A DNA stretch of 64,000 nucleotides from a virus: the IMG/VR virus record IMGVR_UViG_3300044638_008494, positions 1 through 64,000 of that record; one strand, 5' to 3'. Shown in pieces: positions 8,168-64,000 of this stretch. Every line of letters begins with the position of its first letter. Position 1 is the first letter of the stretch. The notes under the pieces were generated by a model that ran no database searches, was not told the origin of the DNA, and saw only the letters and a program-made list of their open reading frames with translations. The translations under genes were made by a program, and so were the position numbers.

Positions 8168-9642
8168 TACAACAATCCATCTTCTTGATTTTCATTTTCA
8201 AATACGTCAACATCAACATTTCTTGCATTAATGATGTCTTCTAACGTTCCGCATTCGCTAACTTGAAAATTTTCAACCTTATAATTAATAAAGTTAGGTT
8301 TGTAAGTGACTCTGCCTCGGTCATCGACAACGCGAACAAGATTTGAGTGACCCCTTGCATTTTTACCCTGATAGCGCGTAGCAAGCTCAATATACTTATG
8401 AGTACCAAACTGGACACCATCTTCAGCTTGCTCTTCGATTGTTTTTCTTCTAAAGATACCAACTTGAGAAGCAAACCACTGCAAACGATCTGACTGTGCA
8501 ATGGCGCTAGAGTCATCTGTGCCGCCCTCTGCCGATCTGTTTAATTGACATGCGGTAAGTAGTGGAATGTTTAAGCGCAAGTGACATTCTTTTAGTTTAT
8601 CAACCTTTTCTCCAATAAGCTGATATTCTTGCTTATTTCCATCAGATTCTCCCGTAAGTTTAATATAGTCATAAACCACAATTGCCGGATTCCCACGACC
8701 AACATCACCATAATACCAGCGTTGAATTAAAGAAGTAATTTCTTCTGTCTTTTTTCTTGCAACTGTCATGTGCTGAACATGGCCAAGAGCTTGTTTTAAT
8801 TCTTGCTTTTTGGATTCAAATTTTGCATACAACTCTCTGTTCTTTTTATAATTTCCTGTTTCAAGCCACCACATTGGAACGCCAGTAATTGCACTTGCAA
8901 TTCTAAATTTCATATCTTTAGTTTGCATTTCGGTATCCAAAATTAAAGCCTTACAATTTGGATTAAGTAATGCCGTCTTAAATGCAATATCGTTCAAGAT
9001 TGTGCTTTTTCCGTGCTTTGGTCGAGACACCCAAGCATATACCTCGCCATTGCGAAGACCGCCGTACATTTCATTAAAATTTTTATATGGAGTAACAAGA
9101 CCAGTATCGTTGATAGGGTTATCTCCCCGCTCCTCAATCATTTCAACAATGTCATCAAAAAGATCTTCCGGCTTTTCATTAAGATTATATGCTGAGATTT
9201 TTTCTCCATACATTTTATCAGCCAATGCAACAATTTCATCGGCTTCCATTTCCCCAGCAGAAATCATAGATTGGGCCATGCTTGAGGCCATCGTATGTAT
9301 ATCGCGCCTAATAGAAAGCGTTTTTAATCTGCGGCATGCATCTTCCAAAGCCTTATCGCTAATCTTAATGTATGAAAGGCTTTGCAGATAATTTAAAATA
9401 TCTAAATTTCCTTTATAGGTAATTCCAAGACTCTGCAATCTCTCCGAAACAAGAACTGGGTCGCTTGACTTATTATGCAAAGCGCAGTCTTTTAGTATTG
9501 CAAAAATTGCACCATGAGGCTTGTGAATAAAGTCTTCTTCAGAAATTAAATGAATTAATTCAAGCAGCTTCTTCGGGTTTTTTAAAAACCCTGCAATGCA
9601 GTGCTTTTCAATTGTTTGGTTTGCGATCTTATCTTGATTCAT
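8167..9642 (-). CDS. dnaB: replicative DNA helicase
   Basis: Walker A SRPKHGKST, LDTEM, VVYDYI, CQLNR; DnaB N-terminal domain present. Confidence 0.93.
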   Translation of the reverse strand: MNQDKIANQTIEKHCIAGFLKNPKKLLELIHLISEEDFIHKPHGAIFAILKDCALHNKSSDPVLVSERLQSLGITYKGNLDILNYLQSLSYIKISDKALEDACRRLKTLSIRRDIHTMASSMAQSMISAGEMEADEIVALADKMYGEKISAYNLNEKPEDLFDDIVEMIEERGDNPINDTGLVTPYKNFNEMYGGLRNGEVYAWVSRPKHGKSTILNDIAFKTALLNPNCKALILDTEMQTKDMKFRIASAITGVPMWWLETGNYKKNRELYAKFESKKQELKQALGHVQHMTVARKKTEEITSLIQRWYYGDVGRGNPAIVVYDYIKLTGESDGNKQEYQLIGEKVDKLKECHLRLNIPLLTACQLNRSAEGGTDDSSAIAQSDRLQWFASQVGIFRRKTIEEQAEDGVQFGTHKYIELATRYQGKNARGHSNLVRVVDDRGRVTYKPNFINYKVENFQVSECGTLEDIINARNVDVDVFENENQEDGLL

Positions 9643-22462: not shown

Positions 22463-22876
22463 TTATATTTTTATAAGTTGGATGTTAAATTCTTTTGCTA
22501 ACTCTACAGAAAAATCATCACGCTCGTAAGCTTCATTATAATATACTTCTTTAATTCCATACATGGATATATTTTTAATACATTCTGAGCATGGGCGAAG
22601 TGTCACCGCTATTAATTTAGCTTCATGTGGCTTAATGTAACGCAAAGCAGCGGCTTCTGCGTGAGATACTCGGCGGCGCCTTTCATCTCTATCGCTCCAA
22701 TTAATCTCAACGCCTGGTGGCGCTCCATTATAACCTATTGCAGCTACAGTATTATCATAGCGCAGAATACAGGCCCCGACCTTCCTGTAAGGATCTTCAG
22801 ATCTAAGCGCAGCAGCTTTCGCAAGCTCCATTGCATATTCTGGCCAAGTTAATCGTTCATGTATCATATTTGACAA
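22463..22876 (-). CDS. dCMP deaminase
   Basis: RSEDP..KVGA, GYNG, HAE, PCSEC. Confidence 0.92.
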   Translation of the reverse strand: MSNMIHERLTWPEYAMELAKAAALRSEDPYRKVGACILRYDNTVAAIGYNGAPPGVEINWSDRDERRRRVSHAEAAALRYIKPHEAKLIAVTLRPCSECIKNISMYGIKEVYYNEAYERDDFSVELAKEFNIQLIKI

Positions 22877-35272: not shown

Positions 35273-35755
35273 ATGCAAAAATCTTTATCTTTTTACAAGC
35301 CAAATAGCTACAATAAAGGATCTGCTGGTCAGTTCCAATATGGAGCAAAAGACGGCGATTTTGGATTATATGTCAGCATAGTTAAACAGGCTGCATGGAA
35401 TACAGATACAAAAAGGGGGTCTTTTTCTGAAAACGCTAAGAATCCATCTAAAAATAAGAAAATAAAACTTAACGCTACAGAAGCTGCGGCTATGTCTAGG
35501 GTTATCTTGTGTGATGTTGACAAGTGGTCTAGCGTTCATAGAAGTGAATCCAAAACAACATCTATAATGTTTTCTCACTATATAAAGGATAATGCCAAAC
35601 TAGGGTATGGATTTTCTATATCAGAAAAGGATGGGGAATCATTCATGCTCAGTTTAAATAATGACGAGGGCTATGTTTTAAAGAATTTTCTTGAAGAATA
35701 TATCAAATTCACATTTAATAAGCAGCAACTTAATACACAACAAGAAAAGTTTTAA
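35273..35755 (+). CDS. hypothetical, possible Whirly/PC4-like nucleic-acid-binding fold
   Basis: Two repeats of beta strands followed by L...E helix (KIKLNATEAAAM; MLSLNNDEGYVL); fold is inference. Confidence 0.45.
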   Translation: MQKSLSFYKPNSYNKGSAGQFQYGAKDGDFGLYVSIVKQAAWNTDTKRGSFSENAKNPSKNKKIKLNATEAAAMSRVILCDVDKWSSVHRSESKTTSIMFSHYIKDNAKLGYGFSISEKDGESFMLSLNNDEGYVLKNFLEEYIKFTFNKQQLNTQQEKF

Positions 35756-37707
35756 TGAGAAAGAAAAGAGTTTTGTTTTTAACTGACTATTCCGGAGTAA
35801 ATACCGGTTTTGGTAAAAATATAAAATTACTATTATCGTATTTATATAAAACCAATAAATACGAATTATTTCACGCCGCATGTGGAGTCGGAGATAATAA
35901 TCCAGAATTTGAACGCTTTCCTTGGAAAACTATTGGAGTCATACCAAATGATCAGGCATTTATTCAAAAAATGCAGCAAGATCAGCATTTCGCTCGAATT
36001 GCCAGCTATGGAGAGCCACAGATAGCAAAGATTGTAGAAGAAACAAAGCCAGATGTGGTATTTGCCATTCAAGATAGTTGGGGGGCGCTATTTGTTGCTG
36101 ACAAGCCATTCTTCAAAAGAATTCCAACAGTTTGCTGGATTACTTTTGATAGCTTGCCATTATTGCAAGATACCATTGATAAAGCAGACAAGATCCAGAA
36201 CTACTGGACATGGTCTGATTTTGCAGAGCATGAATTTCATAGATTGGGATTCAAGCATGTTAAAACGCAATATCCATTAACAAACACTGACCATTTCTAT
36301 CCAATAAGTAACGAAGATAAGTTTAATATTAGAAAAAGGTTTGGAATATCTCAAGATTGCACTATTTTTGGTTTTGTTTTTAGAAATCAATTGCGAAAAT
36401 TAGTTGGCACCTTGATAGCTGGATATGCAGAATTTTTAAAGCATAATCCCGATATGGTAAACAAATCAAAACTACTTCTTCACACCCATTTCGGAGAAGG
36501 ATGGGATATAATGAGATTTGTTAAACAATACAACATACCATTTGAAAATATACTTTGCACATATGTTTGTAAAGAAACAAAACAATATTTTATACATCCG
36601 TATGTAGGCCAAGATGTCGAAAATCCTATTACAAAAAATAAAACTCTCATCACTGCAAACGTTTCAATCGGAGTTACTGATGCTCAATTAAACGAGATTT
36701 ACAACATAATGGATGCATATCTACACCCTGCCACCTCTGGGGCGTGCGAAATTCCTATTGTTGAAGCTGCGCTAACTGAAAAGATAGTATCCACATGTGA
36801 TTATTCTTTTGGGTGGAATGTAGTCAACCATAATAAAGGCTGTATCCCTATGGAGTATTCATTTTACAATGAACCTCCTATGGGATCAAATACGCAGTTT
36901 TTAAAATCTCAACCATTCCCCTCTTCTGTGGCAAAAATAATGAAAAAAATTTGCGAAATGAAAACGCAAAAGAGAAGAGAAATGGAGATGGCGTCTAGAA
37001 AATGGGCTTTAGAAAACTATTCGGTTGATGTAAATGGTAGCAAAATAGAGGCATTTATTGATAGTCAAAATCTTATTGAAGATGAGAATGCATGGCTTGA
37101 TAAAGAAGACAAAAAAATAAATCCAAATGTTCAAATTGAAAATATCCAAGATAACTTGCAATGGATTGTTCAACTTTACAACAAAATATTAGATGCTCAT
37201 CCTGATAATAATGATGACGGCGTAAAACATTGGATGACTCAATTGGAAAGGGGCATGCCTAGAGAAAATATAGAAAAATATTTTAGAGATATTGCCAATA
37301 AGGACATGCAAAAAGAAGAGAAATCTTCTTCCTTAGAAGATCTGTTTGATAAAGATGATAAGGCAAACAAATTGAAAAGATTGCTAATAGTTCAGCCGCA
37401 AAGTGCTGGTGACATATTTTTAGTAACGGCACTTTTGGAATCCTTGAGATTAAAATTTCAATCAGATAAGTGGAAAATTTACTTTGCGTGTGACCCAAAA
37501 TTTGCAGATATTTTATTCGGAAATCAAAATATAGACAAAATTATCCCATATCATCAAATTATGGATAATCAAATTGCAATGGAGGGTCACGGCGATCATC
37601 TTGGTTATGTTGATATATGTTTAAATCCATATTTTTCAACACAAAGACTTTTAAATTATACCCACAATGGATATAGTATTTGTCAATTTGATAATAAACT
37701 TAATTAA
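35755..37707 (+). CDS. fusion: GT4-like glycosyltransferase + DUF4214-like helical domain + GT9 N-terminal domain
   Basis: TGFG..RNQLRK..EIPIVEA (GT4); LYNKIL..PD...G..HW..L..G (DUF4214); QSAGDIFL.TALL..N.NIDKII (GT9-N). Confidence 0.8.
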   Translation: MRKKRVLFLTDYSGVNTGFGKNIKLLLSYLYKTNKYELFHAACGVGDNNPEFERFPWKTIGVIPNDQAFIQKMQQDQHFARIASYGEPQIAKIVEETKPDVVFAIQDSWGALFVADKPFFKRIPTVCWITFDSLPLLQDTIDKADKIQNYWTWSDFAEHEFHRLGFKHVKTQYPLTNTDHFYPISNEDKFNIRKRFGISQDCTIFGFVFRNQLRKLVGTLIAGYAEFLKHNPDMVNKSKLLLHTHFGEGWDIMRFVKQYNIPFENILCTYVCKETKQYFIHPYVGQDVENPITKNKTLITANVSIGVTDAQLNEIYNIMDAYLHPATSGACEIPIVEAALTEKIVSTCDYSFGWNVVNHNKGCIPMEYSFYNEPPMGSNTQFLKSQPFPSSVAKIMKKICEMKTQKRREMEMASRKWALENYSVDVNGSKIEAFIDSQNLIEDENAWLDKEDKKINPNVQIENIQDNLQWIVQLYNKILDAHPDNNDDGVKHWMTQLERGMPRENIEKYFRDIANKDMQKEEKSSSLEDLFDKDDKANKLKRLLIVQPQSAGDIFLVTALLESLRLKFQSDKWKIYFACDPKFADILFGNQNIDKIIPYHQIMDNQIAMEGHGDHLGYVDICLNPYFSTQRLLNYTHNGYSICQFDNKLN

Positions 37708-51391: not shown

Positions 51392-54300
51392 TTATGCAGT
51401 CTGACCATTTTTAGTTTGTAATCCAGCAATTTGCCTATTAACAGCATCAATTGCCGATGCAAGTTCTGCTCTTAACTGCTCTTGAACTTCCGATATTTTT
51501 GCTCCAACCTCAGCAATTGCCTCTTCAGACATTGATACGTCTATTTTAAAATCAGTACTAATATCAACAGGAAAACTAATATCTTGATTTAAAGTCATTT
51601 CTTTTCCACCATCTTCTACTGGCTGCTGAGATACCTCTCTCTGTGGTGACTCTTGAACTTGCTTAGTTTGTTCTTCAACTATTCCACTATTTTTATTAAC
51701 AGCCTCACGACTACCATCTAATGACTTTTTCAATTCCCTTATTTCTTCTTTTCCTTGCTCGATATTTTTAGGAGGGGCCATCGGGGCTTGAGGCTCAACT
51801 CCGATTGGCGGTTTTGATTCTGGGTTAAAATTTGGATCATAATACCCTAATCCCCCATCTGGCTGTGGAAACATTTTCGGAGGAGGAAGCGTTGGTTTAG
51901 GAAATTGAGGAAAAGCTGGGCTTAACAAAGGAGACTGAGGTGTATATGGTCGAGTTAGTGGCCCACCAATTGGCTGCAATGGAGATTGGATTTGTGGATC
52001 CGCAAATTGACCAACCAAAGGATTAACTCCTCGATTTGTAAATGGAGACGCAGTAGGTGGAACATATGGTGAAACTGCGGGGTTATTATAAGGAAAAGGC
52101 TTTGGAGCCTGAAGCGGCATACCCACGCTACCAGCTCCACCCTCTCCGAAATTAGGATCATAAAATCCTTGACTTCCATCAGGCTGAGTAAATGTTTGCG
52201 GCGGAGGAAGCGTTGGTTTAGGAAATTGAGGAAAATTAGGTCTTGGCGTCAATACTTCTCGCATATTTTCCGCTGACCCACCCAACATAACAGATCCTTC
52301 TAGCGCACTTACTATCTTATCTCCATTTAAATCTATAGCACCTATCATTTTTATAGCAAATGGATTAAGAGAATTTTCTAAAACAGACTTTATAATCGGC
52401 ATAACGTCAGTCGCCATTGTTCCATCTATACCCTTGTTTAACATACCATCTCTGGAAGCATTTGGGGCTTGATATGGCATTTGCGACAATAATGATGTTA
52501 CATCATAAGTGTTTCCAGCCTTTAACTCATCTCTTAAATACTGTATTACTGATATCATTTTATCATCTGATATTTTTTGTCCAGCCAGTAATGCGTCAAT
52601 TGAAGATTTTAATTGTTGCTGAAAATCATCGACATTTTTAATTTCAGAATTTGCATTCTGGCTCTTTTGTACGGCGAGCTGATTTACGGACCGACCAGTA
52701 TCGGTCGCCTCCACTTTTAATTCGTTTTTCAAATATTTAGAAAAATTTTCTTTTAAACTATCCGCAAACTCTTTTCCATACTTATTCATAGCATCAACTG
52801 CCAATTTATTATTTGGATCTGCCCTCCATTGGGTTAACTGCTCTTTTGTCATTGATTGAGACCATTGGCCCGACATTCGACCTTCTTCATTAAACATTTG
52901 ATGTGTTTGATATTTATCTCCCCAACTTAACAAATCAGCACCAGGATCATCTGGTCCGTAGTTGTATTTCCTACGAACTACATTTTGATAATTTTTTTCT
53001 TCAATTTCTTTTATTATTTCTTGAAATGATTTTCCTAATGGGCCACTTGATGCTCCTGATATGTTTGTATTCGGAAGTTTATTTAAAATTTGTTTTAGTA
53101 TAGAAATATTTTGAGCTACAGCTTGGTCTTGCTGCGCTTGAGATGCTTCCATTGCTTTAGCGGCCGCTGGGCTTATAATTGTAAAATTTCCGCCACTAGA
53201 GCCGCCAACGCCACTAACACCACCAACGCCGCCAGCACTACCAGCACCACTAACACTGCCAGTAGTAGCTGCTCCCCGCATTGCTGCTTTTATTGCACTT
53301 GCGGCTGCTGTGCTTGTTATTGGGGGATTTGTTGTGGCGCTTCCTCTAGCATTAGACTGCATACTAAATGCACCGCCAGAAGTTGATGGGCATAATGCAT
53401 TAATAGCTGTTTGCGCACAATTTGCCAAATTTAGTAATTTTTCCGCAGCATTATCTGCTTCTTTTTGTAATCCAGTAAAGGCTTGTTGTGAAAATTTATC
53501 CATATTTATTCCCACATATCCAATAGATTTAACCAGATCTTCAGCTGCTTGATTGAATGGGTTAGCAAATTTTTGCCCAGGCTTCATACCGCCAAACTGC
53601 TGATTAACCATATCAACCACATTTGCTCGACCCAATCCCTTTAAATTACCCAAACCAATAGCATCAAGGTATTCATCGGATTGATCTTGCAACATTGCTG
53701 TTAATCTTGATCTTTCTCCTCTTTGGTAATTTTCTGGAATTCCAAGAGCTTCCATAGCTTCTAATCTTCTGATTGACTGTTCGCGCTCGAACTTGTCCAT
53801 TTCTCTTTTATATTTTAATGGCCCAATTTCGCCAGCTTGGTATGCCCTACGAAGCTCAGTTCCCTCCATTTGTGTTGGGTCAAATCCTGATAATCCAGAA
53901 ACCCCACCAGCATATCCTTGCATTTTTTGCATGCGATCATTAAATCTACCAACTGCAATATCGAATGCCTGTTGAACTTTTTGTGCAGCATTGTTAAAAT
54001 CTATATTTTGTAGCGCCTGTTTTAAATTAAAATTTGCATCTTCAAGGCTTTTCTCATATGCGTCCTGCAGCCCTTTAGGCAATTTTGATAAATCAATTTT
54101 TTGTATATCTTCTATAGTTACAGCTTTTGCAATTTGTTCGGATACATTTTGCAAATCTACAACCTCTCCACGGTTAGCAGATGTTGTTAAATCTGCATTT
54201 TTTATATTATCTTGCAATTGCGGAACAAATGATCCCTTTAATGTATCAGCCGCTTCTTTACTTGCTTCTATAAAATCAATATAACTTTGCTGATCAATTC

Positions 54301-57300
54301 TTGCTGCGCCAATTGCCGCTTCTTGTTCAAAAGATGGGGTTCTGTACTGCATAATCGCAGTATCAGTTTGCGTGGCTAAGCCTAAATTAAATTTAGGTAT
54401 ATCTATTTTTAAAATTTTATTTAAGCTTCCTATTAATTTTGCAGAATTATCAAGCGCGTTTTTATTTTTTCTAAAATTATTAATATAATCTTGAACTACT
54501 TGTGGCAATTGTGAAATATTTTTTCTACTCTGTTCTTCAAGTCGAAGAGTATTTTGATTTTCTTCTAAACGCTTTTTCAAATTTTTAGATAAATCTTCTG
54601 ATAATCCTCTTAATTCTGCAGGTGATGCTTTTTTAAATGCTTCTTTTAATTTTTCAAGTTCTTCTGCGGTGCCTTCCCCGCCTTCTTTCAACATGCTTAA
54701 AATATTATCAAATTCTTCTCCAATACGGACCGCGTCAAATCCTTTTAATTTTTCCACCGAAGGAATTACCTTGTTTAACATGTCTATGCGGCCCTTAGTA
54801 TCAACATCTTCTCCACCGGCATAATCAAATGTAGATAAAATAGAATCAGCAATTTTTTTAGATTGATCTTTTCCTATATTGGTCCATGATGTTATAAATT
54901 CTTTACCAATATCTGTAGTTAACGATTCAATATTTGCACCTCTTGTTTGATCTTGTATATATTTAGCTAAAATTTCTTGCTGTTTTGCAACATCATTTGT
55001 CGCAGATATTTGGTTTTGTATGCTTGGTGGCAACTTTGATAATTGTCGCAAGTATTCATTTTCTGCTCTTGTTATATCTTTAATTGGGGCATTGGATTCA
55101 GTTAAATCACTTAATTTTTCTCTAGCTATTAGTAATCCTTGCGTAGACTCTTGTGCTCTTTGTGCATTTTCTGTTGCTTTTTGAACTCTTTGAGATGCAT
55201 CGCCCAATCCATTTATAGATAATGCTAGCGCATCTACAATTGGCTTTGCTGATAATGCAGCTCCAACTATTCCTCCTATTATTGCGCCTGGTGCTCCACC
55301 GCCAACTGCCGCGCCAGCCCCTGCAAAACCACCAATATTGCCTAATCCAGTCAAAAGTGACCCCGCAACTGTTTGATCTCCACCAGCTATCTGAGATCCT
55401 ATTCCGCTTGCTGTTTGAAGGGCGAATCCCAACCCCAAACCTTTATTTTTTGCAAACTCATCAAACCTTTCTCTTTTAGTCAAGCTTCGTTTATTTATAG
55501 CAGATTGAATTGTTGCTGCTCTTTCTTCAGATTTGGCCTGATCTCTCGCTACACGCTCTCTTCTTTTTTCCCTTTCTATTTGACCAGCCATTCCAGTATC
55601 TGTCCATGTCCCTGCTTGGGCATTATATAATGTAGGATTTTGTCTGGCTGTATTTTCCTGAATATCTAATTTTTGCAAAAGCTTGTTTTGCCTATTTATT
55701 CTTTGCTGGTTAGATTCAAATGCTTGATCTAATGTTTGTCCGGTGGATTTTAGTTCTCCTTTTAATTTTCTTAATTCTTTTGCTCCATCATCCAGCTGTC
55801 CTCCAAAAAATGCTAGAGAAAATAGCAATCCAGAAATTGATGCTGAAATTGCTGTAAAATCTGTTGCTCCAGAGGTGAAATTTGTTGCTCCAGAGGTGAA
55901 ATTTGTTTCATTATCTCCTGCGGCAAAATTTGGAATGAATCCAGAAGAGGCCAATAATCCAGCACCTTTCTGCATCTCTGCAGAATCCTTCATGGCGCGA
56001 TTTTTTCCACCATGTTGGCGCATAGCTGAGGCAAACGAAGGCTGACTTTTATTTCTTACGTGCAAGAATGGCTTATCATCTATTACGGCTTTTTTTCCAG
56101 AAATAGATTCTTCTAAAGCAATAACTTCTTTGACATACTGATCTGATTTTGCAAAATTTGGTATAAAACCAGAAGCTGCCATATCAGAAGTTTTGCGTAT
56201 ATTTTGATTATAATTTCTTAATTCTTTTATGGCCATTGGGCTACTAGCCAGCGACTGCAAATCCTTATCTGATAAGCCCAACTCTTTTGCTCCTTGAACA
56301 AGTGGCTTGTATTTTAAATCTCCGATCTTAATTGCGTCCAGATTAAATCCAGCATTAGATTTAGATCCGTACAGCAGTTCTTTAAATTTATTTAACTTGT
56401 CTGGCGTTCCAAGTTTTAACAACGATCCTTGCTGTATTCTTGCCAAGGCAGATTGTGCCGCAGATCTTTCTCCAAGGGTAGCGCCGCGCTTCATCAATTC
56501 TTGAATTGCTTGTATATTTACAAAATTTGGTATAAAACCAGAAGCAAATTTACCAACATTCGGCTGACTTTCAGATGCAATCCTCTTAGCCATATGTCCA
56601 AATACTATTGGGTCAATAAGCCCTACTTTATTTGTTTTTATTAAACCTTCTGGAGAAATTCCACCTTCGCGCGCCTGTATTTGCGCTTCTTTTGGAAGTG
56701 GGCGCATAAATGTAAAATTCGCTGATGAGGCAGTATCTAAAGCTAATGCTTGCAACCAATTTGGCTTTTCGCTTACAGACCTTTTTGCACTCTCAAATCT
56801 TGAATTGACAATAGCAATTAAAGATTTTTCTACCTCATAATCGTTAATTTCATCTTTAAATGTATTACCAGCAAATCTTTGCGATGTTACCAATGAGTTA
56901 CCAGAGACTCTTCTTAAAGGCAATAATTGTAAATTTGAATCAGTTTTTTTTAGTTGCCTTGTAGCTTTTGCCCAATCTATTGAACCAATATCTCTTAATT
57001 TACCTCTTTGTTGCATTGGGGACTTGTAATCTAAAGTCGGTAATTTTAGAACTTTACTTCCGGTTTTAAACGCATGAGATTCTGCCCCACTGCCTAGATA
57101 TTGTAAATCAGGATATTGTTGATATAATTTATTTATACGCTTTTCAACTGCTGGTTTTTGTTTAATCTCCTCAAAATTAAACGAACTCTTATTTCGTATT
57201 TGCTCTAAAATTGGGCTATCTGCAAAATTTGGTATAAACCCACTTGCCATAGCAAACATCCCTTGCTGGTTTGGATATTTTTTTGCAAATATTGCTCCTA

Positions 57301-60300
57301 ATTTTGCTACAATATCAGGATCTCTTAAAGCTTCTTGTGGCAATCTATTCTTTTTGACAAAGTCTTTAATCCATTGTGCTTGAAATTTATTTCTTCCAGC
57401 CATCATTGGATTTGCTGCAAATGCTGGAATAAAACCATCGGCAGCGCCAGAAGATTGTAACGCTGCCATTCTTTTCTCTACTTCTATTTCAAACTGTGAT
57501 CGCGCTCCTCCCCTTCTAAGAACTAGCCCTTCTTTTCTAATACTTTCAATAGCTTTTATTCTAAGAGCCTGAACTTTTCCAAAACCAGGCCCACTTTTTA
57601 CTTGTTTAACTGCACCAGGTTTTGCTTCGTTGAGTAATTTTTGCATTACTTCATTAGTTGCACCCGATGAGCTTTTTGCATCATACATTCCAGGCGCACC
57701 ATGAAATAATTTTCTTAATCTTGGCGTTATTCTTTCTTGTCTAAAATCAATACCAGCATTTTGAGAAGTTTTTTGTAAGCCTTGCTGAAGTAAAGTAATT
57801 AATCCACCCTCGAAGGCAACGCCAACGGCACCCTCTGCTGCTCCATAGTTAGGAAGATCTTTTGGTGATTTTAAAAAGTTTTCACCTCCTAAAACTTGTC
57901 CGAATTGATTCGCCTCACGAACAAGTAGGTCGCCTAAATTTTTTTTCAAATCAGGGAGCTGGCCTTTAATAACATCTTTATTAATTCCAGCAACCGGTAT
58001 TAGCCCTTTGTATTTTTTGCCAAGATACGAACCAGCGCCCGGTGCCATTGTGTAACCTTCAGAAATATTAGGATAAATAAGAGATACAACCTTGCCATTT
58101 AATGCTTTAGATGTTCTCGTATCACCAAGATCAATAATTTCATCGCCTTCCTTTGATGATTTGGCAAAATTTGGTATAAAACCAGAAGCTGCATTTGGAA
58201 CAACCAATTTATAATTGCTTGGCATAAAAATATTATCCTTTTGTGGAGGATTTTGTTTTTTGCTTTTTCCGTAATTAGTTTCAATAACTTTAGAAATTAA
58301 ATTATCGTTGTCTATTGTTCCAAATTTCACCTCGCCCACTGGTTTTCCTTTTGAATTTAATAGGTCCATTCTTGCAGTTTTTGATTCTGCAACTTGCAAA
58401 CCAAGACGATTCGCAGCAAATCTCTCGAAATATTTACCAACAAGATCATTTTTTACCCCAGTGAATTGTCTGTCCTTATTAACTAATTTTGTATTGCCAG
58501 ATAATAAGCTAGGAACCTTTTCTTTATTTGTGAGCAAATTTTGTTTTAACTGGCCAATTTGTTTTATAGAATACCCATTTCTTGTAAAATATTTAACAGC
58601 AGTCTCTGATAGCTTTGAATCTTTGGAATTTAAATTATTTAATTGTTTATCAAATTGATTTTCAAATGAAGATCTACTACCAATCGAAATAATATCAAAT
58701 GAAAATGGAGAATATGTATCTAAACCCTTATTTGCTACTTGAGATGATTGTACTCCAGTTATAGTACCACCTGGCAAAGATTTTTTATTTTTTGGTTGTG
58801 CGAAATTTGGCACAAACCCAGATGCAGATATTTTTTTAGCTCCATCAGGTAGACCATATTTGCTTTTCATTTCCCTATTCCATACAGCAGTTCCATCACC
58901 ACCACCATAATTAGGAACAGCCCATTCTCCAGTATGAGCCACCATTGTCCCCTTTTTATTATTTCCCATTGGGAAATTTTTCATTACAACTGGTCTATCT
59001 TTTGCTGGATTTGCGTCACCAACTCTATTATTAATATTATTTTGCTCTGCTGCTAGATGCGGCAAAAAGCCACCAGCCGCAGTTTTAACCTTAGAACCTC
59101 TTTGTGTTATAAAAGATTTTCCACCCACGTTTTGCACACCAACTTGAGACGCTGTTGTTTTTGCTATCTGTGCTGCTATAGAATTTTGCTTTTGCAACTC
59201 TATGGTTTGCTGCTTTACAATTTCTAAATATGCTTTTGCCCCAGAAGCAACAGAGGCTTGGCCGCTAGATATTGCCTTGTATATACTAGCATTATTTTGT
59301 AAAAATTTTACAACACTTTGCTGTATTACTGCTTGTTCTTTAGCTGCTTGATTTACCCCTAAAATACTTTTAAAAGCTTCAACACCATATCTAGAAAATT
59401 CTGCAAATAGTTTAACTACCGCTGCCGTTACCAAAGCAAGCCCTGGTCCGCCAATAAAATTTCCAATTCCGCTTATTATTCCGCTACCAATTTTTGCACC
59501 AATACTATCAGCATCAACATTGTTCACGGCACCAGTGAGAAATTCAGAAATATTTAAAACATTTTTTGCAGCTGGCTCAAAAAGTCCACCAGCAATATTT
59601 CCTCCAGCTTGCTGTATATTTGCCAAGGCACGCGTACCTCTAGCAGAAAGTGTTTCATTTAATTTTTCATTACGCCTTATGGCCTGATCAGTAGTTCCAA
59701 GTGATGTTTTTAAAGCTTGGTCATATATTGAATATTCCTTACCAAGATCTCCCAGCGCAGCTTTTAATACGTTAATTTGGAATACACCGCCAACCTGCTC
59801 AGCTACATAGTTTTTTTGCGTTGCAGATAATCCATCGTAAACACTAGCAAGTTCTTTCAATAATTGTACTTGCGTTTTTACATTACCCTCGGCATCTGTA
59901 GATTGTATGCCTAGCCCACCCAAAACTTCTTGTGTTTTTTCTCTACCAAGTCTTGTAAATATAGTTTTTAATGAGTTACCTATAACAGCACCGCCTCGAG
60001 CCGTAACTTGTTGCGCGGTGGTTACTAAAGCGATCAACTCATCAAAAGAAATTCCAGCATCATCAGCGGAAGATCCAACGCGGCTAAGTGCGTTTGCTAA
60101 ATCCGCAGAACTAACAGCAAAAGCAGCATCAACGTTAGCTAGTTTATTTACAATTTCAGTTGCTTGTAGCGCAGATCCCCCAAACGAGTTGATTGCGGCT
60201 GTTAATGCAGATACGCTAGCGGCGGCATCCAATCCACTTAAACGTGTTAAGATCAAAGCCGCTTCTGTTCGCTTTAATGTTTCTTCTACCCCAAGACCTT

Positions 60301-60718
60301 GACGAGAAAGTTCCGTAGCAGCTTCGGCAACCACATCAAACGATTGCGCTGTGTTCCCAGCGATATCGAATAATGAAGCTCCAAATTTCGCTAAATTTCT
60401 ATCTGTCAAATTTAACAGAACATTAACATCTGCTAATTTTTTTTCTACATTTACAAATGTATTAAATAAAGAAGTAACAGCGCTTTGTATCGCAAAGATT
60501 GCACCAGCAGATGCAGCAAAGGCAATAACGCGCGCGTTCGCTGCGGCCAAAGACTTGTCGATTTCTTGTATTTGACCGCTAATTTTGCCCAATGGCTGTG
60601 CTGCGCCACCTGCTGTTTGAATATTTAGAGTAACACCTTGCTTGGCAACCTGATCAATTTGCCGCCTAAGTTTCGCGGTATTACCATCAACATCTACTCT
60701 GATATTTGGATTAGCCAT
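51392..60718 (-). CDS. tail tape measure protein (TP901-type core) with internal cargo-domain array
   Basis: 3108 aa; ELSRQG, LANVD..FAVS..DLA.AL.R.GS.A, G.VIGNSLKTIFTR core; coiled coils and hydrophobic Gly/Ala segments; follows tail tube and chaperones. Confidence 0.93.
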   Translation of the reverse strand: MANPNIRVDVDGNTAKLRRQIDQVAKQGVTLNIQTAGGAAQPLGKISGQIQEIDKSLAAANARVIAFAASAGAIFAIQSAVTSLFNTFVNVEKKLADVNVLLNLTDRNLAKFGASLFDIAGNTAQSFDVVAEAATELSRQGLGVEETLKRTEAALILTRLSGLDAAASVSALTAAINSFGGSALQATEIVNKLANVDAAFAVSSADLANALSRVGSSADDAGISFDELIALVTTAQQVTARGGAVIGNSLKTIFTRLGREKTQEVLGGLGIQSTDAEGNVKTQVQLLKELASVYDGLSATQKNYVAEQVGGVFQINVLKAALGDLGKEYSIYDQALKTSLGTTDQAIRRNEKLNETLSARGTRALANIQQAGGNIAGGLFEPAAKNVLNISEFLTGAVNNVDADSIGAKIGSGIISGIGNFIGGPGLALVTAAVVKLFAEFSRYGVEAFKSILGVNQAAKEQAVIQQSVVKFLQNNASIYKAISSGQASVASGAKAYLEIVKQQTIELQKQNSIAAQIAKTTASQVGVQNVGGKSFITQRGSKVKTAAGGFLPHLAAEQNNINNRVGDANPAKDRPVVMKNFPMGNNKKGTMVAHTGEWAVPNYGGGDGTAVWNREMKSKYGLPDGAKKISASGFVPNFAQPKNKKSLPGGTITGVQSSQVANKGLDTYSPFSFDIISIGSRSSFENQFDKQLNNLNSKDSKLSETAVKYFTRNGYSIKQIGQLKQNLLTNKEKVPSLLSGNTKLVNKDRQFTGVKNDLVGKYFERFAANRLGLQVAESKTARMDLLNSKGKPVGEVKFGTIDNDNLISKVIETNYGKSKKQNPPQKDNIFMPSNYKLVVPNAASGFIPNFAKSSKEGDEIIDLGDTRTSKALNGKVVSLIYPNISEGYTMAPGAGSYLGKKYKGLIPVAGINKDVIKGQLPDLKKNLGDLLVREANQFGQVLGGENFLKSPKDLPNYGAAEGAVGVAFEGGLITLLQQGLQKTSQNAGIDFRQERITPRLRKLFHGAPGMYDAKSSSGATNEVMQKLLNEAKPGAVKQVKSGPGFGKVQALRIKAIESIRKEGLVLRRGGARSQFEIEVEKRMAALQSSGAADGFIPAFAANPMMAGRNKFQAQWIKDFVKKNRLPQEALRDPDIVAKLGAIFAKKYPNQQGMFAMASGFIPNFADSPILEQIRNKSSFNFEEIKQKPAVEKRINKLYQQYPDLQYLGSGAESHAFKTGSKVLKLPTLDYKSPMQQRGKLRDIGSIDWAKATRQLKKTDSNLQLLPLRRVSGNSLVTSQRFAGNTFKDEINDYEVEKSLIAIVNSRFESAKRSVSEKPNWLQALALDTASSANFTFMRPLPKEAQIQAREGGISPEGLIKTNKVGLIDPIVFGHMAKRIASESQPNVGKFASGFIPNFVNIQAIQELMKRGATLGERSAAQSALARIQQGSLLKLGTPDKLNKFKELLYGSKSNAGFNLDAIKIGDLKYKPLVQGAKELGLSDKDLQSLASSPMAIKELRNYNQNIRKTSDMAASGFIPNFAKSDQYVKEVIALEESISGKKAVIDDKPFLHVRNKSQPSFASAMRQHGGKNRAMKDSAEMQKGAGLLASSGFIPNFAAGDNETNFTSGATNFTSGATDFTAISASISGLLFSLAFFGGQLDDGAKELRKLKGELKSTGQTLDQAFESNQQRINRQNKLLQKLDIQENTARQNPTLYNAQAGTWTDTGMAGQIEREKRRERVARDQAKSEERAATIQSAINKRSLTKRERFDEFAKNKGLGLGFALQTASGIGSQIAGGDQTVAGSLLTGLGNIGGFAGAGAAVGGGAPGAIIGGIVGAALSAKPIVDALALSINGLGDASQRVQKATENAQRAQESTQGLLIAREKLSDLTESNAPIKDITRAENEYLRQLSKLPPSIQNQISATNDVAKQQEILAKYIQDQTRGANIESLTTDIGKEFITSWTNIGKDQSKKIADSILSTFDYAGGEDVDTKGRIDMLNKVIPSVEKLKGFDAVRIGEEFDNILSMLKEGGEGTAEELEKLKEAFKKASPAELRGLSEDLSKNLKKRLEENQNTLRLEEQSRKNISQLPQVVQDYINNFRKNKNALDNSAKLIGSLNKILKIDIPKFNLGLATQTDTAIMQYRTPSFEQEAAIGAARIDQQSYIDFIEASKEAADTLKGSFVPQLQDNIKNADLTTSANRGEVVDLQNVSEQIAKAVTIEDIQKIDLSKLPKGLQDAYEKSLEDANFNLKQALQNIDFNNAAQKVQQAFDIAVGRFNDRMQKMQGYAGGVSGLSGFDPTQMEGTELRRAYQAGEIGPLKYKREMDKFEREQSIRRLEAMEALGIPENYQRGERSRLTAMLQDQSDEYLDAIGLGNLKGLGRANVVDMVNQQFGGMKPGQKFANPFNQAAEDLVKSIGYVGINMDKFSQQAFTGLQKEADNAAEKLLNLANCAQTAINALCPSTSGGAFSMQSNARGSATTNPPITSTAAASAIKAAMRGAATTGSVSGAGSAGGVGGVSGVGGSSGGNFTIISPAAAKAMEASQAQQDQAVAQNISILKQILNKLPNTNISGASSGPLGKSFQEIIKEIEEKNYQNVVRRKYNYGPDDPGADLLSWGDKYQTHQMFNEEGRMSGQWSQSMTKEQLTQWRADPNNKLAVDAMNKYGKEFADSLKENFSKYLKNELKVEATDTGRSVNQLAVQKSQNANSEIKNVDDFQQQLKSSIDALLAGQKISDDKMISVIQYLRDELKAGNTYDVTSLLSQMPYQAPNASRDGMLNKGIDGTMATDVMPIIKSVLENSLNPFAIKMIGAIDLNGDKIVSALEGSVMLGGSAENMREVLTPRPNFPQFPKPTLPPPQTFTQPDGSQGFYDPNFGEGGAGSVGMPLQAPKPFPYNNPAVSPYVPPTASPFTNRGVNPLVGQFADPQIQSPLQPIGGPLTRPYTPQSPLLSPAFPQFPKPTLPPPKMFPQPDGGLGYYDPNFNPESKPPIGVEPQAPMAPPKNIEQGKEEIRELKKSLDGSREAVNKNSGIVEEQTKQVQESPQREVSQQPVEDGGKEMTLNQDISFPVDISTDFKIDVSMSEEAIAEVGAKISEVQEQLRAELASAIDAVNRQIAGLQTKNGQTA
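51882..52235. repeat. 33-bp exact direct repeat (FPQFPKPTLPP) in Pro-rich tape measure C-terminus
   Basis: ggaggaagcgttggtttaggaaattgaggaaaa at 51882-51914 and 52203-52235. Confidence 0.9.
55862..55907. repeat. 21-bp tandem repeat (about 2.2 copies; TNFTSGA)
   Basis: tgttgctccagaggtgaaatt repeated exactly. Confidence 0.9.
55922..59080 (-). repeat. eight dispersed 30-bp/10-aa repeats encoding xxSGFIPNFA within the tape measure gene
   Basis: Copies at 55922, 56150, 56519, 57221, 57416, 58163, 58799, 59051; three share the identical 25-mer caaaatttggtataaaaccagaagc. Confidence 0.9.
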
Positions 60719-60788: not shown

Positions 60789-61775
60789 TCAGCTCTTGCT
60801 AGCCAATTCGTATATTCCCATGCTTCCCTTTGTTTGGGATTCAGAAATTATTTTATCTCCCAATATATCACCGCCAGCAATGCTTTTAACGTCATCCCTA
60901 TCTCCAAATAAGAAAGTAGATCCCTTATTTCCTTTTTTATTTTTACTGGTAGATTCTACTCGTTTCCTATTCTTTAAAGATTCAAGCCATTGATCTAATT
61001 TATCGGGGTTATCGTAAACCCCATCTGGAATTTCAGCGTCAGAGTTTTTAATTATATTTTGATAATATTTCCCCCAAATTAAAACTTCATGCTGATTTTT
61101 TGTTAGTTTTATTACTGGCTTTCCAAACACTTCCATAGATGTGCTCCCTATATACAAGATATTTTGAAAATGATGAGATATGGCTGTTTTTTTTATTATT
61201 TTAGAAGAGAAATCGGATAAATATTTAAAATAGTAATATGTTGCCCAATCTAAGATATTTTCAGACTCTTCATCTAGATTTTTATTAAATAATAACTCTT
61301 TTAAATCTTCATTTTTAAATAAAAAATTTTGCAAGAAAAAATCAGAAGTTTTTTTTGTGGCCCACTCCTCTGATGTCATTACGATAAAGGATGATCTTTC
61401 TTTATTTAACTTATCTAATTTTTCATGCTCAGAATTAACTTGCTCGTCAATACGCTTTTTATCAGAATCATAGATTAGTTTTGATCTTGTTGTATTTAAT
61501 CTATTAATTGTTGATTTTAATATTCGAATTTGATTCTCTTTTTCTTCACTCCACCACCCATATTTGGATGCAAGCGCCACCTGATCTTCTTCTCCAAGTA
61601 TTCCATTAACGCTGGCTTCATTTAAAAATCTATCATAAATATCTCTTATCTGAAGAGACTCTGATTGGGTTAAATGCTTTAAGTATATTTTTCCGTAATT
61701 TTCTATTTGGTATACGGAATAGCCATTAGATATATCTTCAAAAACGGCCAATACATCAACACTTTGGCCACTCAT
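60789..61775 (-). CDS. putative tail assembly chaperone
   Basis: 328-aa helical protein between tail tube and tape measure. Confidence 0.55.
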   Translation of the reverse strand: MSGQSVDVLAVFEDISNGYSVYQIENYGKIYLKHLTQSESLQIRDIYDRFLNEASVNGILGEEDQVALASKYGWWSEEKENQIRILKSTINRLNTTRSKLIYDSDKKRIDEQVNSEHEKLDKLNKERSSFIVMTSEEWATKKTSDFFLQNFLFKNEDLKELLFNKNLDEESENILDWATYYYFKYLSDFSSKIIKKTAISHHFQNILYIGSTSMEVFGKPVIKLTKNQHEVLIWGKYYQNIIKNSDAEIPDGVYDNPDKLDQWLESLKNRKRVESTSKNKKGNKGSTFLFGDRDDVKSIAGGDILGDKIISESQTKGSMGIYELASKS

Positions 61776-61784
61776 AATGTTAGT

Positions 61785-62561
61785 TTATTCCTCGCTTGGC
61801 TTTGTGTCTTCTATTTTATTTTCTTTATTTTCTTCAGTATCAGCGGCAGTACTGTCATCTGCTGATCGATTTGACCCAGAATCGCTATCTTTAAAATCTT
61901 GCCAATTCGAGATTCTGTTTAAAAACCAAAGCGTAATTAAATAATTAAATCTTTGACCAACCTTTATAATAAAGGCTTCATCTTCATTGTCTGGATCAAG
62001 CTGATCATACCAGTCCAGCATTTCATCGTAATTTTCACCATTAAAAAACTGCTCGTCTTCGCTTTTATAAGCTAATTGTGTTAACCACCATTGGATGGTT
62101 GCATTTCTTGCCTTAGCCTCTGCCGTATTTTCAAAAATGTAAATTTGCTCAAGCTCAAATGTTTGAATCTCCCTTTTTGATTCTTCAATTTGCAATTCAA
62201 GTTTTGCTTTTTGAAGTTTTTGTTTATTATCTAATTCGGGCAATTGGTTTAATTTGTTCAACTCGATACTTGATTCAAAAAATGTTCTTTTGGCTTTAGT
62301 ATAATCCTCTGCTTCAGAGTTTGAAATTGTTCCTCCTAAGTTTTCTAAAATAGTATTCCAAGCGGCTTTTGGCAATAGGCCAGCCTTAACAAAGCTCGCT
62401 AACTGTTTTGCGTATTCAACTTCGCCAAGTTGCCGCAAGCTTCTTGATGGTTTTAAAATATAAAATCTTTTCTCTTCATTCTTATTGTTTTTAGCAATGA
62501 ATGAGTAAATCCATTTTTTAGTATCAAAGTCCGGTTTATCCTGCACATCATTATTATTCAT
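61785..62561 (-). CDS. putative tail assembly chaperone
   Basis: 258-aa coiled-coil protein between tail tube and tape measure. Confidence 0.55.
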   Translation of the reverse strand: MNNNDVQDKPDFDTKKWIYSFIAKNNKNEEKRFYILKPSRSLRQLGEVEYAKQLASFVKAGLLPKAAWNTILENLGGTISNSEAEDYTKAKRTFFESSIELNKLNQLPELDNKQKLQKAKLELQIEESKREIQTFELEQIYIFENTAEAKARNATIQWWLTQLAYKSEDEQFFNGENYDEMLDWYDQLDPDNEDEAFIIKVGQRFNYLITLWFLNRISNWQDFKDSDSGSNRSADDSTAADTEENKENKIEDTKPSEE

Positions 62562-62566
62562 ATTTA

Positions 62567-62806
62567 TTACTTTCTATTATTATCATCATTAATAAACAAA
62601 AAATCAAAATTTTCTAATTCTTTTGTTATATCTCTTATTGTATTATTTCCGTGATCAAGAATTCTCTTTCTAATTTTTTGAAATTCTTCATCTGACATGC
62701 GGCCATCAGCTACAATATCTTCTAATACATAGATAAAAGACAAAAAAAGCCTAGTCACAGACTTTTTAATATATCCGAGTACAAATTCTTTTATATTAAA
62801 TTTCAC
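62567..62806 (-). CDS. small hypothetical protein (GTG start)
   Basis: 79-aa ORF, RKRILD.GN motif. Confidence 0.65.
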   Translation of the reverse strand: MKFNIKEFVLGYIKKSVTRLFLSFIYVLEDIVADGRMSDEEFQKIRKRILDHGNNTIRDITKELENFDFLFINDDNNRK

Positions 62807-62847
62807 CTTTAAAAACCTTTTACCTTACATGGTATTACACCATAAAA

Positions 62848-62880
62848 TAAAAAAAGGGGCAGAAACTGCCCCTTTTTTTT
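62848..62880. terminator. bidirectional intrinsic terminator after the tail tube gene
   Basis: A-tract GGGGCAG-AAA-CTGCCCC T-tract. Confidence 0.85.
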
Positions 62881-62899
62881 GAATTTATTTTGTTTATAA

Positions 62900-64000
62900 T
62901 TATACCAAAGCAGCTGCTGGAAAACTTCCAGACAAGAAGATACCACGTTGATTATCTTCTGGGCCACCAATTGGAACTTCAAAACTTGCAGTTAGCGTAG
63001 CATTGTCTCCGATTGATGTTGACAAGCTTTGACTTACAAGCTTAGCACCTTTAAGTGTTGCGCTCATTGCCAAATCTCCTGCACCAGAGCAGTCGATCTT
63101 CTTAAGCTTTAAGGTTAAATCGTATACTCCAGTATCGCAAAGAAGGCTAGAAATATTTCCATCTGAAAGATTTCCAACTTCAGCATCTATATCTAGCGTA
63201 GCTGTAACTGGAAAGTCAATTTCTCTAGCAAATGAGAAGCGGCTTCCCAATTTGTTCAATGGCGTTCTTGCTAAATCAAAACTCATGGTTGCTGATTGAA
63301 CTTTCAAGTCAGAAGCTGAGTACCCAATGATTCCAGTAATATCGATAGTAGCATCGCCTGGAAGAAGTGCTGTTGGTTGTGCGCCATAAGCGTTTGTTTT
63401 GTGCTGAGGCAATCTGAATGCCTGTGACGTAATTGGCAATCCATTTACTGGATTAACAGCAGGAACATCGTTATTACCATCAACTGATGAGTAAATTCTA
63501 GCATTAAGTGCTTCCAAATCAACTGTAGCTGTTGGAATATCGCCCACTGCAACATTCAAGCTATATGAAGTAACATAACTATTTCCAACACCAACAACTC
63601 CGGTTACCCCTGCATAGTTTGATGCGTCACTACCTTCAGATGCGACTAAAAGATATAGATTTTTTTCGTCGGTTGTCTTTTGAAGAATATCTTTTAAGCA
63701 TGAAACTTGTGCTTGGGTTCCTGTAGCAACAGTTAGTCCTAGCAATTTTTCATTTAAACCATCTGTTACATAGTAAGATAAGCTTGCTGAAACTGTTGGG
63801 GCTTCTGTGTCAAGACGATCAATTGCTGCAAGATTTCCAAATTGGTTAATATCTTGTAGATTTCTTGTGAAATCTGAATCAAATGATTGAACACGGGTAA
63901 GCTGTTTGATATCAGCTGATCCGGTTTGCGCCACTCTAGCACCGTTTGTTCCAGTAGTTTGGCTTGCGAATACTCCTAGTGATTGATATATAATGCGATT
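62900..64000 (-). CDS. major tail tube protein, 5' end outside window
   Basis: Frame stays open to the window edge (NRIIYQSLGVFASQ...), so the true start is upstream of the 63934 call; beta-rich, strong terminator, precedes chaperones and tape measure. Confidence 0.75.
   Translation of the reverse strand, partial: NRIIYQSLGVFASQTTGTNGARVAQTGSADIKQLTRVQSFDSDFTRNLQDINQFGNLAAIDRLDTEAPTVSASLSYYVTDGLNEKLLGLTVATGTQAQVSCLKDILQKTTDEKNLYLLVASEGSDASNYAGVTGVVGVGNSYVTSYSLNVAVGDIPTATVDLEALNARIYSSVDGNNDVPAVNPVNGLPITSQAFRLPQHKTNAYGAQPTALLPGDATIDITGIIGYSASDLKVQSATMSFDLARTPLNKLGSRFSFAREIDFPVTATLDIDAEVGNLSDGNISSLLCDTGVYDLTLKLKKIDCSGAGDLAMSATLKGAKLVSQSLSTSIGDNATLTASFEVPIGGPEDNQRGIFLSGSFPAAALV

Follow-up and report, generated by a model that had tools for sequence, protein, structure and literature searches.

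A repeated junction peptide borders exchangeable modules in a giant tape measure protein of an uncultured phage

Positions 1 to 64,000 of the IMG/VR virus record IMGVR_UViG_3300044638_008494 (64,000 nucleotides, referred to herein as the window) belong to a record of 107 kb that is estimated to be 70% complete, and they include the gene for a giant tape measure protein (TMP) in which a short peptide of the form A-x-G-[FY]-[IV]-P-N-F-A recurs at the borders of a row of dissimilar segments. Here we describe this array, its counterparts in related TMPs and the exchange of segments at the repeated peptide, and we consider what the peptide and the modules that it borders might do during infection.

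Anatomy of the tape measure protein

The TMP gene is the longest gene of the 107-kb record. The TP901-type core, PF10145, matches amino acids (aa) 121-311 of the product with 101.6 bits against a cut-off of 33.2, and the nine PHROG tape-measure families that match the protein do so with E-values down to 1.6e-42. The gene also lies where a TP901-family TMP gene is expected, being the longest of the tail module and situated after the head and neck genes and before the distal-tail genes, although these neighbors are unannotated. On its sequence the protein is thus a TP901-family tape measure (PF10145/TIGR01760 type) with a putative role in setting tail length, and its core is only 28% identical to the SPbeta-type TMPs (YomI). 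The parts of the protein are as follows, in order from the N-terminus (window coordinates; pI, isoelectric point; AF2, AlphaFold2; pLDDT, predicted local distance difference test).

51392-60718, minus strand: TMP gene, 3108 aa, an open frame without a stop, matched by PF10145 and by nine PHROG "tail length tape measure" families
59081-60718, minus strand: N-terminal TP901-type core, aa 1-546, with the PF10145 portion (aa 121-311) at 59786-60358
59051-59080, minus strand: motif M1, AAGGFLPHLA, degenerate (motif scan), decayed also in the relatives L009 and P0004
58829-59050, minus strand: seg1, 74 aa, ancestral small module 1, with an internal VPNY-GGG, pI 9.6
58799-58828, minus strand: motif M2, SASGFVPNFA (motif scan)
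58193-58798, minus strand: seg2, 202 aa, a variable cassette in second position that contains the string FE..D..EVK, a restriction-endonuclease-like lead only
58163-58192, minus strand: motif M3, AASGFIPNFA (motif scan)
57446-58162, minus strand: seg3, ancestral central domain of 239 aa, detected at 63 of the 80 loci, AF2 pLDDT 86.6
57416-57445, minus strand: motif M4, AADGFIPAFA, a degenerate copy at which the seg4-seg5 insertion has its left edge (motif scan and alignment of relatives)
57251-57415, minus strand: seg4, 55 aa, helical accessory cassette that P0003, P0004 and L009 lack
57221-57250, minus strand: motif M5, MASGFIPNFA (motif scan)
56549-57220, minus strand: seg5, 224 aa, accessory cassette with a predicted protein-kinase-like fold (AF2 model and fold searches)
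56519-56548, minus strand: motif M6, FASGFIPNFV, right edge of the seg4-seg5 insertion (motif scan and alignment of relatives)
56180-56518, minus strand: seg6, 113 aa, accessory cassette with no Pfam, PHROG or NCBIfam match
56150-56179, minus strand: motif M7, AASGFIPNFA (motif scan)
55952-56149, minus strand: seg7, ancestral small module 2 (66 aa), in every case the final module ahead of the hydrophobic segment (comparison of relatives)
55922-55951, minus strand: motif M8, ASSGFIPNFA (motif scan)
55805-55861, minus strand: first hydrophobic (membrane-type) segment, aa 1620-1638 (Kyte-Doolittle scan)
55253-55309, minus strand: second hydrophobic segment, Gly-rich, aa 1804-1822 (Kyte-Doolittle scan)
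51395-55921, minus strand: C-terminal 1509 aa, with the hydrophobic segments, a long helical "ruler" part and a Pro-rich end; acidic, pI 5.3
51827-52168, minus strand: two Pro-rich elements of ~29 aa (FPQFPKPTLPPP..QPDG..G), TMP aa 2829-2964, each ending in a variant of the motif

A regular-expression scan locates the eight motif copies of the TMP with their Gly residues at aa 550, 634, 846, 1095, 1160, 1394, 1517 and 1593, separated by spacers of 74, 202, 239, 55, 224, 113 and 66 aa (window positions 59080 to 55922). An initial reading of the DNA made from its letters alone (the sequence-only reading) had quoted these eight ten-residue strings, segment lengths and the span 55922-59080, and the scan reproduced them exactly; the placement of the array between the TP901-type core and the membrane segments, and the description of its contents as seven unrelated segments, likewise agree with the domain borders given above and with pairwise BLAST, in which no two segments show significant similarity (best E-value 0.047, over 19 aa). 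All seven segments are basic, with pI values of 9.6-10.2 against 5.3 for the C-terminal 1509 aa.

Two further features of this protein lie outside the array. The heptad NFTSGAT is tandemly duplicated right behind M8 and is followed by DFTAIS (55862-55921, minus strand; aa 1600-1619), with one copy fewer in P0003, a relative whose core is 99% identical. The motif variants that end the two Pro-rich elements, GFYDPNF (52148-52168) and GYYDPNF (51827-51847), are one residue longer than the motif of the array, and true motifs are seen near the C-terminus of some relatives, after a segment of 900-1200 aa.

Conservation of the junction motif

The motif is far from a chance recurrence, as 120 related TMPs together contain 605 copies where shuffled proteins contain 0.8 on average, and in the TMP described here PN[FY] occurs 11 times against 0.5 expected. 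Across all six frames of the 107-kb record no copy lies outside the TMP array, and the head proteins have none. The consensus over 604 instances is (G/N)-(A/K)-A-(S/G/K)-G-(F/Y)-(I/V)-P-N-F-A, in which the Gly and Pro are conserved in 100%, the Asn in 96%, the Phe in 93% and the Ala in 86%; seven contiguous positions are conserved at 74-100%. Lys, Gly and Ala are abundant just upstream. In AF2 models the motifs are unstructured, with pLDDT values of ~54-55 around seg3 and below 50 around seg5.

Codon usage separates selection on the peptide from selection on the DNA. For the seven motif positions, sampled as 172 instances in 78 distinct TMPs, codon entropy is about the same as for the same residues elsewhere in the gene (1.64 versus 1.77 for Gly, 1.42 versus 1.46 for Pro). 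Synonymous codons in the motif therefore vary almost as freely as they do elsewhere, and hence the conserved object is a peptide and not a DNA site.

Each of the ancestral modules has a conserved PN[FY] of its own. It is seen as VPNY-GGG in seg1 (aa 598-610), as LPNYG in seg3 (aa 953-960), where it caps the helix with the invariant Glu, and as QPNF in most relatives of seg7 (alignment A8). One possibility is that the array arose by repetition of a single small unit.

Related tape measure proteins and their common frame

Aa 547-1599 as a query brought up 120 TP901-type TMPs from the protein collection, 1.8-4 thousand aa in length, all of them partial matches and almost all with 2-10 copies of the motif, and more than 586 IMG/VR contigs have related TMPs. 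Among 65 complete TMPs the number of motifs ranges from 1 to 9 with a mode of 3, and TMP length correlates with it (r = 0.66). The 485 inter-motif segments fall into 97 clusters, which occur in many orders around a constant frame. From the N-terminus this frame consists of the core, a motif, a small module (~72-80 aa), a motif, a variable cassette (~200 aa), a motif, the central domain (~225-330 aa), a motif, optional extras, a motif, a second small module (~57-67 aa), a motif and the hydrophobic segment. The sequence-only reading had predicted just such a pattern, with motif number and inter-motif content variable and the flanks constant.

Iterative searches identify seg3 as the central domain of the frame, and seg1 and seg7 as its two small modules. 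By these comparisons of sequence, seg1, seg3 and seg7 are the ancestral modules of the lineage, while seg2, seg4, seg5 and seg6 are accessory cassettes. The view of all the segments as cargo, which the sequence-only reading had taken, thus holds only in part, since three of the seven are ancestral modules that most of the lineage shares.

The basic character of the array extends to the relatives, in which the median pI over 456 segments is 9.7. Pfam searches of 22 large arrays (that of this TMP and 21 others) gave only GNAT domains, in three members, and one nucleotidyltransferase-associated region; the two GNAT domains of P0053 lie inside separate motif-bounded cassettes. The wall hydrolases of relatives (P0065, P0070) lie well beyond the array, which ends near aa 1100, with a lysozyme at aa 1862-1986 and a GH19 domain at aa 2111-2163.

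In tblastn searches, cultured phages had no homologue of the array or of seg7, as four matches to seg7 at E-values of about 8 are noise. A two-motif DNA pattern had a lone match among 185,579 species genomes, in a contig (JBBCHT010000001.1) of a GTDB metagenome-assembled genome from the Actinomycetota. This match was rejected as chance; the contig has 47% GC and a single motif in a short frame, and a TMP core is missing. As far as so narrow a pattern can reach, reference genomes thus gave no sign of the lineage as a prophage.

Exchange of cassettes at the motif

The closest comparison is with P0003, whose TMP is 99% identical to that of the window in the core, 97% in seg1, 94% in seg2, 96% in seg6 and 98% in seg7, but which is without seg4-seg5 and has a seg3 allele that is only 75% identical. 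The alignment breaks inside M4 and inside M6, and the P0003 version of M4 runs directly into the residues that follow M6. The 299-aa seg4-seg5 insertion is therefore bounded inside the motif at both of its ends.

The accessory cassettes also have histories apart from those of the cores. Thus seg5 is 75% identical to a cassette of P0005, while the core and seg3 of that protein are only 53% and 43% identical; seg4 is 66% identical to a cassette of P0051 (core 52%); and seg6 is 66% identical to a cassette of P0012 (core 50%), with the range across relatives being 66-73% for seg6 cassettes and 50-74% for the cores. Two motif copies of this gene share an identical 20-base string, from which a third differs by one base. 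As judged from these alignments, accessory cassettes are gained or replaced by recombination with break points in the junction peptide, and their insertion or exchange at the motif is borne out by both the P0003 comparison and the identities of seg4, seg5 and seg6 set against those of the cores.

Folds of the seven segments

Searches of Pfam, PHROGs and NCBIfam segment by segment gave nothing significant for any of the seven. One fold assignment comes from the structure model of seg5, which was built by AF2 from only six sequences (pLDDT 83.1; predicted template modelling score 0.78). Its top Foldseek matches in the PDB are all kinase-like (PRPK/Bud32, APH(2''), Rio1 and Cdc7), with E-values down to 1.7e-4 and a probability of 1.00, although the TM-scores are low at 0.34-0.38. 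The VIA matches are all kinases as well, with Z-scores of 7.3-5.6 over 130-150 residues, the match at Z 7.3 having a root-mean-square deviation (rmsd) of 4.5 over 140 aligned residues. Kinases also make up nearly all of the 50 best matches when 48,161 chains are searched independently of Foldseek (best Z 6.7, rmsd 4.4, 134 aligned), among them the minimal effector kinase HopBF1.

A catalytic set can be assigned to seg5. It comprises a Gly loop, GSGAES (aa 1209-1214, with G1209-S-G1211), K1225 within VLK, D1328 and N1334 in LDTASSAN, and D1369 in LID. The first Asp (D172 of the alignments, aa 1328) is invariant in both A6 and A7, while A6 shows no variation at N178 (aa 1334) or D213 (aa 1369), and the consensus of A7 retains both. 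The Gly loop, the Lys, the D..N pair and the second Asp are kept in a few relatives that are 31-77% identical. No kinase family of Pfam, PHROGs or NCBIfam matches seg5 at lax thresholds, nor does a sequence or profile search of the PDB, and in the ESM Atlas Phage_T7_kinase appears only at rank 25, on 17% of members. Relatives of seg5 are rare: among 1.84 billion representatives there are only three inside TMP-size proteins (1,427-3,433 aa) and one 178-aa fragment, and a scan of viral contigs had none. The Z-scores are modest, but the matches are uniform and the catalytic residues present, and the model thus supports the assignment of seg5 as a minimal protein-kinase-like enzyme. Of the enzyme folds named in the sequence-only reading, the kinase-like domain is hence the one that all three structure searches recover.

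The other enzyme fold named there, "nuclease-like", fared less well. An ordered E..D..(D/E)xK string is present in both seg2 and seg3, but the seg3 model is without a fold match and seg2 without a match to a hidden Markov model (HMM). Across the 52 sequences of alignment A2, numbered by a 259-residue construct of the central domain with both of its flanking motifs, G124, F127, E128, K173 and K185 of seg3 are invariant and D149 is nearly so, and the strings FE, IDF and DAK are arranged like a PD-(D/E)XK signature. Foldseek searches of the PDB and BFVD with the confident seg3 model that was built from this alignment (pLDDT 86.6) gave nothing at E ≤ 0.001 and no nuclease, and a Foldseek-independent wide VIA search of the PDB gave no credible fold, its best match (Z 5.4) lying on a helical hairpin. 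For seg2, in which the corresponding signature residues are FE, MDL and EVK, hmmscan returned DUF6998 at E 0.007, which is below the cut-off of that family, and feature-level look-alikes in the ESM Atlas are Tox-REase-9, -7 and -3 at 0.88-0.90, a lead only. A search of the whole record with the Tox-REase-9 HMM gave no match at E ≤ 10, and no free-standing homologue of seg2 was found among proteins of 111-354 aa. An hhalign comparison of seg2 with the seg3 family (P 0.006, probability 6%, signature region only) is suggestive of paralogy but not significant. We therefore treat "nuclease-like" as a lead from linear motifs.

The "DUF2786-like helix" that had been read in seg6 was not recovered, as PF10979 has no match at E ≤ 10 either by hmmscan or in the whole record. 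In seg7 the positions E23, R42, F49, H56, G58, A62, S66 and Q70 (86-residue construct of alignment A8) are invariant.

Neighboring genes and the source phage

The order of genes in this region of the record is TerL, portal, a capsid-like protein of 371 aa, small neck-size genes, proteins of 369, 79, 258 and 328 aa, the TMP, and proteins of 523, 511, 600 and 766 aa. The features outside the TMP gene are listed below.

60789-62806, minus strand: three conserved genes directly upstream of the TMP gene (328 aa; 258 aa, acidic; 79 aa), with homologues in 67-77 of 80 loci
60789-64000 of the window and 64001-68761 of the record, minus strand: tail/neck module, defined by gene conservation in related contigs
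1621-4203, minus strand: DNA polymerase (phrog_405, E 6e-162)
8167-9642, minus strand: DnaB-like helicase
22864-25188, minus strand: ribonucleotide reductase
35755-37707, plus strand: glycosyltransferase-like gene in a short plus-strand island

The tail/neck module (328, 258, 79, 369, 290, 194, 167 and 188 aa) is common to 57-77 of the 80 related contigs. None of its proteins matches PHROGs, and Pfam gave no match for the four that were searched (328, 258, 369 and 290 aa). The three encoded directly upstream of the TMP are putative tail-assembly partners, for which no PHROG, Pfam or PDB-sequence match was obtained among the searches made. A predicted complex of the 258-aa and 328-aa proteins with M7-seg7-M8 reached a score of 0.00 where the mark is 0.32, and in this prediction, made without controls, the score counts neither for nor against binding. 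A sub-threshold match to Phage_capsid_4 is seen for the 371-aa capsid-like protein (67074-68189).

The replication and nucleotide genes form a set like that of a large lytic-type phage. No tRNA genes were found in the window, and a run of open reading frames of about 220 aa each at 25.3-31.7 kb showed no paralogy on checking. The source is probably an uncultured, long-tailed, non-contractile phage of about 150 kb.

A proposed role for the array and the junction peptide

We propose that the TMP holds, between its core and its first membrane-type segment, a row of independently folding basic modules set between junction peptides, with this array as payload bound for the host, a proposal that we consider evenly poised between right and wrong. 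In lambda, T5 and 80alpha the C-terminus of the TMP is at the tail tip and the N-terminus near the DNA end (PMC12617516; bioRxiv 10.1101/2024.12.10.627806). This anchoring, taken with the hydrolases that lie beyond the array in relatives, suggests that the wall part would exit before the membrane segments and these before the basic array. The TMP would thus precede the DNA out of the tail, its C-terminal end leading, and the portion behind that end (with a lysozyme or GH19 domain in relatives) would deal with the wall, the hydrophobic segments would then insert into the membrane, and the basic N-terminal array, which is closest to the DNA end, would reach the cytoplasm as ready-made payload. 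One conserved partner would read the junction peptide as a peptide, and the ~30 bases that the copies share would offer, as a side effect, a common landing place for recombination.

What that partner does at the motif is a separate question. From its sequence pattern the motif may be a site for site-specific processing, cleaved as in a polyprotein, and this we tentatively favor over an uncleaved function, without putting its chances as high as those of the payload proposal itself. The seven contiguous conserved positions point to cleavage, as do the small residues before a bulky one, and a junction sequence stands at each domain border, as in viral polyproteins; the cleaved TMPs of lambda and T5 are a precedent (PMC12617516). 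In the boldest form of this idea, the junction peptide would act as a portable "load and release" signal, such that any domain flanked by two copies would be stored in the tail and freed in the host by dedicated processing. The release activity could then be a cleavage beside the invariant Asn that is triggered by assembly or ejection, by analogy with the Asn-dependent self-cleavages of nodavirus and tetravirus capsids. This form is in our view rather unlikely.

Several results weigh against the payload proposal. No cleavage, ejection or enzyme activity has been observed, and the lineage is wholly uncultured. No peptidase family was detected by Pfam in the 22 large arrays, this TMP included, none was recognized in the genes neighboring the TMP, and in 80 loci there is no gene split at a motif. 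The sequence-only reading had suggested a cleavage, chaperone or docking signal, and we found no supporting evidence for this, with the motif absent from the head proteins of the record and a peptidase not found. Of the seven modules, three do not vary but are universal, among them the central domain, which is without a recognizable enzyme fold. The capture of cargo from ordinary genes is unsupported, because neither seg2 nor seg5 has detectable free-standing relatives. Storage of the array also poses a difficulty, since three (or six) chains with folded domains of 25 kDa arranged side by side would be too wide for a tail-tube lumen of ~4 nm, which is our own estimate by analogy with the 3-4 nm channel of lambda gpH* (PMC12617516).

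The strongest competitor is an uncleaved docking or hinge peptide, by which the modules would stay tethered to the TMP for life and be kept in register through a pocket in the tail-tube lumen, an assembly chaperone, a neck protein or an adjacent TMP chain. Possible but doubtful in our estimation, it would account for the disorder of the isolated motif, a property of short docking motifs, for the two aromatic residues flanking a Pro-Asn turn, and for the further copies of PN[FY] within the ancestral modules and within the elements G[FY]YDPNF of the Pro-rich C-terminus; the missing protease and the missing gene splits also fit it, and the TMP N-termini of 80alpha do dock onto the tail completion protein by strand addition (bioRxiv 10.1101/2024.12.10.627806). 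Conservation of seven contiguous positions at 74-100%, however, is higher than the majority of docking motifs require and resembles that usual for specific protease sites, and no partner has been identified.

The modules might instead be structural filling of the tail, that is, basic spacers that line an acidic lumen or hold the DNA end, with the enzyme-like folds as relics. The universality of seg1, seg3 and seg7 fits such a role, as does the lack of a family for most cassettes, and the modules are all basic, as TMPs generally are in relation to a negatively charged lumen (bioRxiv 10.1101/2024.12.10.627806). Yet accessory cassettes turn over fast between near-identical backbones in the manner of conflict genes, the catalytic residues of the kinase-like module are kept across relatives that are 31-77% identical, and GNAT and nucleotidyltransferase-associated domains occur in the arrays of relatives, all of which makes filling alone improbable. 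It is harder still to credit a DNA signal, be it a recombination or a regulatory site, of which the peptide would be a by-product. Cassette break points do fall in the motif and two copies do share an identical 20-base string, but such strings consist of the commonest codons of an AT-rich genome, and with synonymous codons near background at all seven positions in 172 instances we rejected this possibility on codon entropy.

With cassettes as payload and the junction peptide as the element that a partner reads, several consequences would follow. TMPs are usually seen as passive rulers with at most a wall hydrolase; here a large uncultured lineage of phages would employ the ruler as a carrier made of modules that are all joined in one standard way. 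If these modules reach the cytoplasm, they would represent a route by which siphophage-type tails deliver pre-made enzymes for host takeover or anti-defense, and if "load and release" is true, more than 580 uncultured phages share a natural plug-in system for protein injection in their tape measure. The arrays are a source of hundreds of uncharacterized cassette families with rapid turnover, and the junction peptide is a natural design rule for loading foreign proteins into phage tails. The motif also allows the site and manner of TMP processing, a long-standing problem, to be tested at a defined sequence.

Comparison with known systems

In polymorphic toxins, VENN (in CdiA) and PxxxxDPxGL (in Rhs proteins) mark the border at which toxin modules are exchanged, and in Rhs proteins the border is also a site of self-cleavage. 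There is one such border per protein, in a secreted bacterial toxin and not in a virion protein, and to our knowledge the junction motif has no sequence similarity to either demarcation motif. We found no published description of a repeated junction peptide fencing exchangeable modules within a TMP, and the motif string itself was found in no paper.

TMP processing is known from lambda gpH (to gpH* and gpHC) and T5 pb2, which are cut in the assembled tail by an unidentified activity and then form a trans-envelope channel, with both the site and the catalyst being unknown for lambda gpH (PMC12617516). Those proteins have a single cut near the C-terminus and no cassette array. The TMPs of TP901-1 and SPbeta YomI type share the PF10145 core with the protein described here, and relatives of the latter have a lysozyme or GH19 domain in the C-terminal half. 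In YomI-type TMPs, however, the wall enzymes lie beyond the membrane segments, while the present array lies before them and is basic, with cytoplasm-type folds.

In their content the arrays resemble the polyvalent proteins of Iyer et al. (2017; PMC5512222), giant proteins of phages and conjugative elements that are co-transferred with DNA and rapidly shuffle unrelated conflict domains, including kinases, GNATs and nucleases. The domains recognized in the present arrays are one predicted kinase-like fold in this TMP and, in relatives, GNAT and a nucleotidyltransferase-associated region. Unlike this TMP and the 21 other arrays, in which none was found, polyvalent proteins commonly embed a zincin-like peptidase; that study never mentions tape measures and does not describe a conserved junction peptide.

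The closest parallel in position is gp96 of Thermus phage P23-45, a TMP of 5002 aa whose N-terminal portion is the virion RNA polymerase (Chaban et al., 2024; PMC10770324), on account of which the premise of the sequence-only reading that TMPs usually carry only cell-wall hydrolases is dated. The two proteins are related only as tape measures, and gp96 has one fixed enzyme and no reported repeated junction peptide. Each is nonetheless a giant TMP with an N-terminal part that is carried in the tail, which in the case of gp96 is an enzyme that acts in the cytoplasm and is used at the start of infection.

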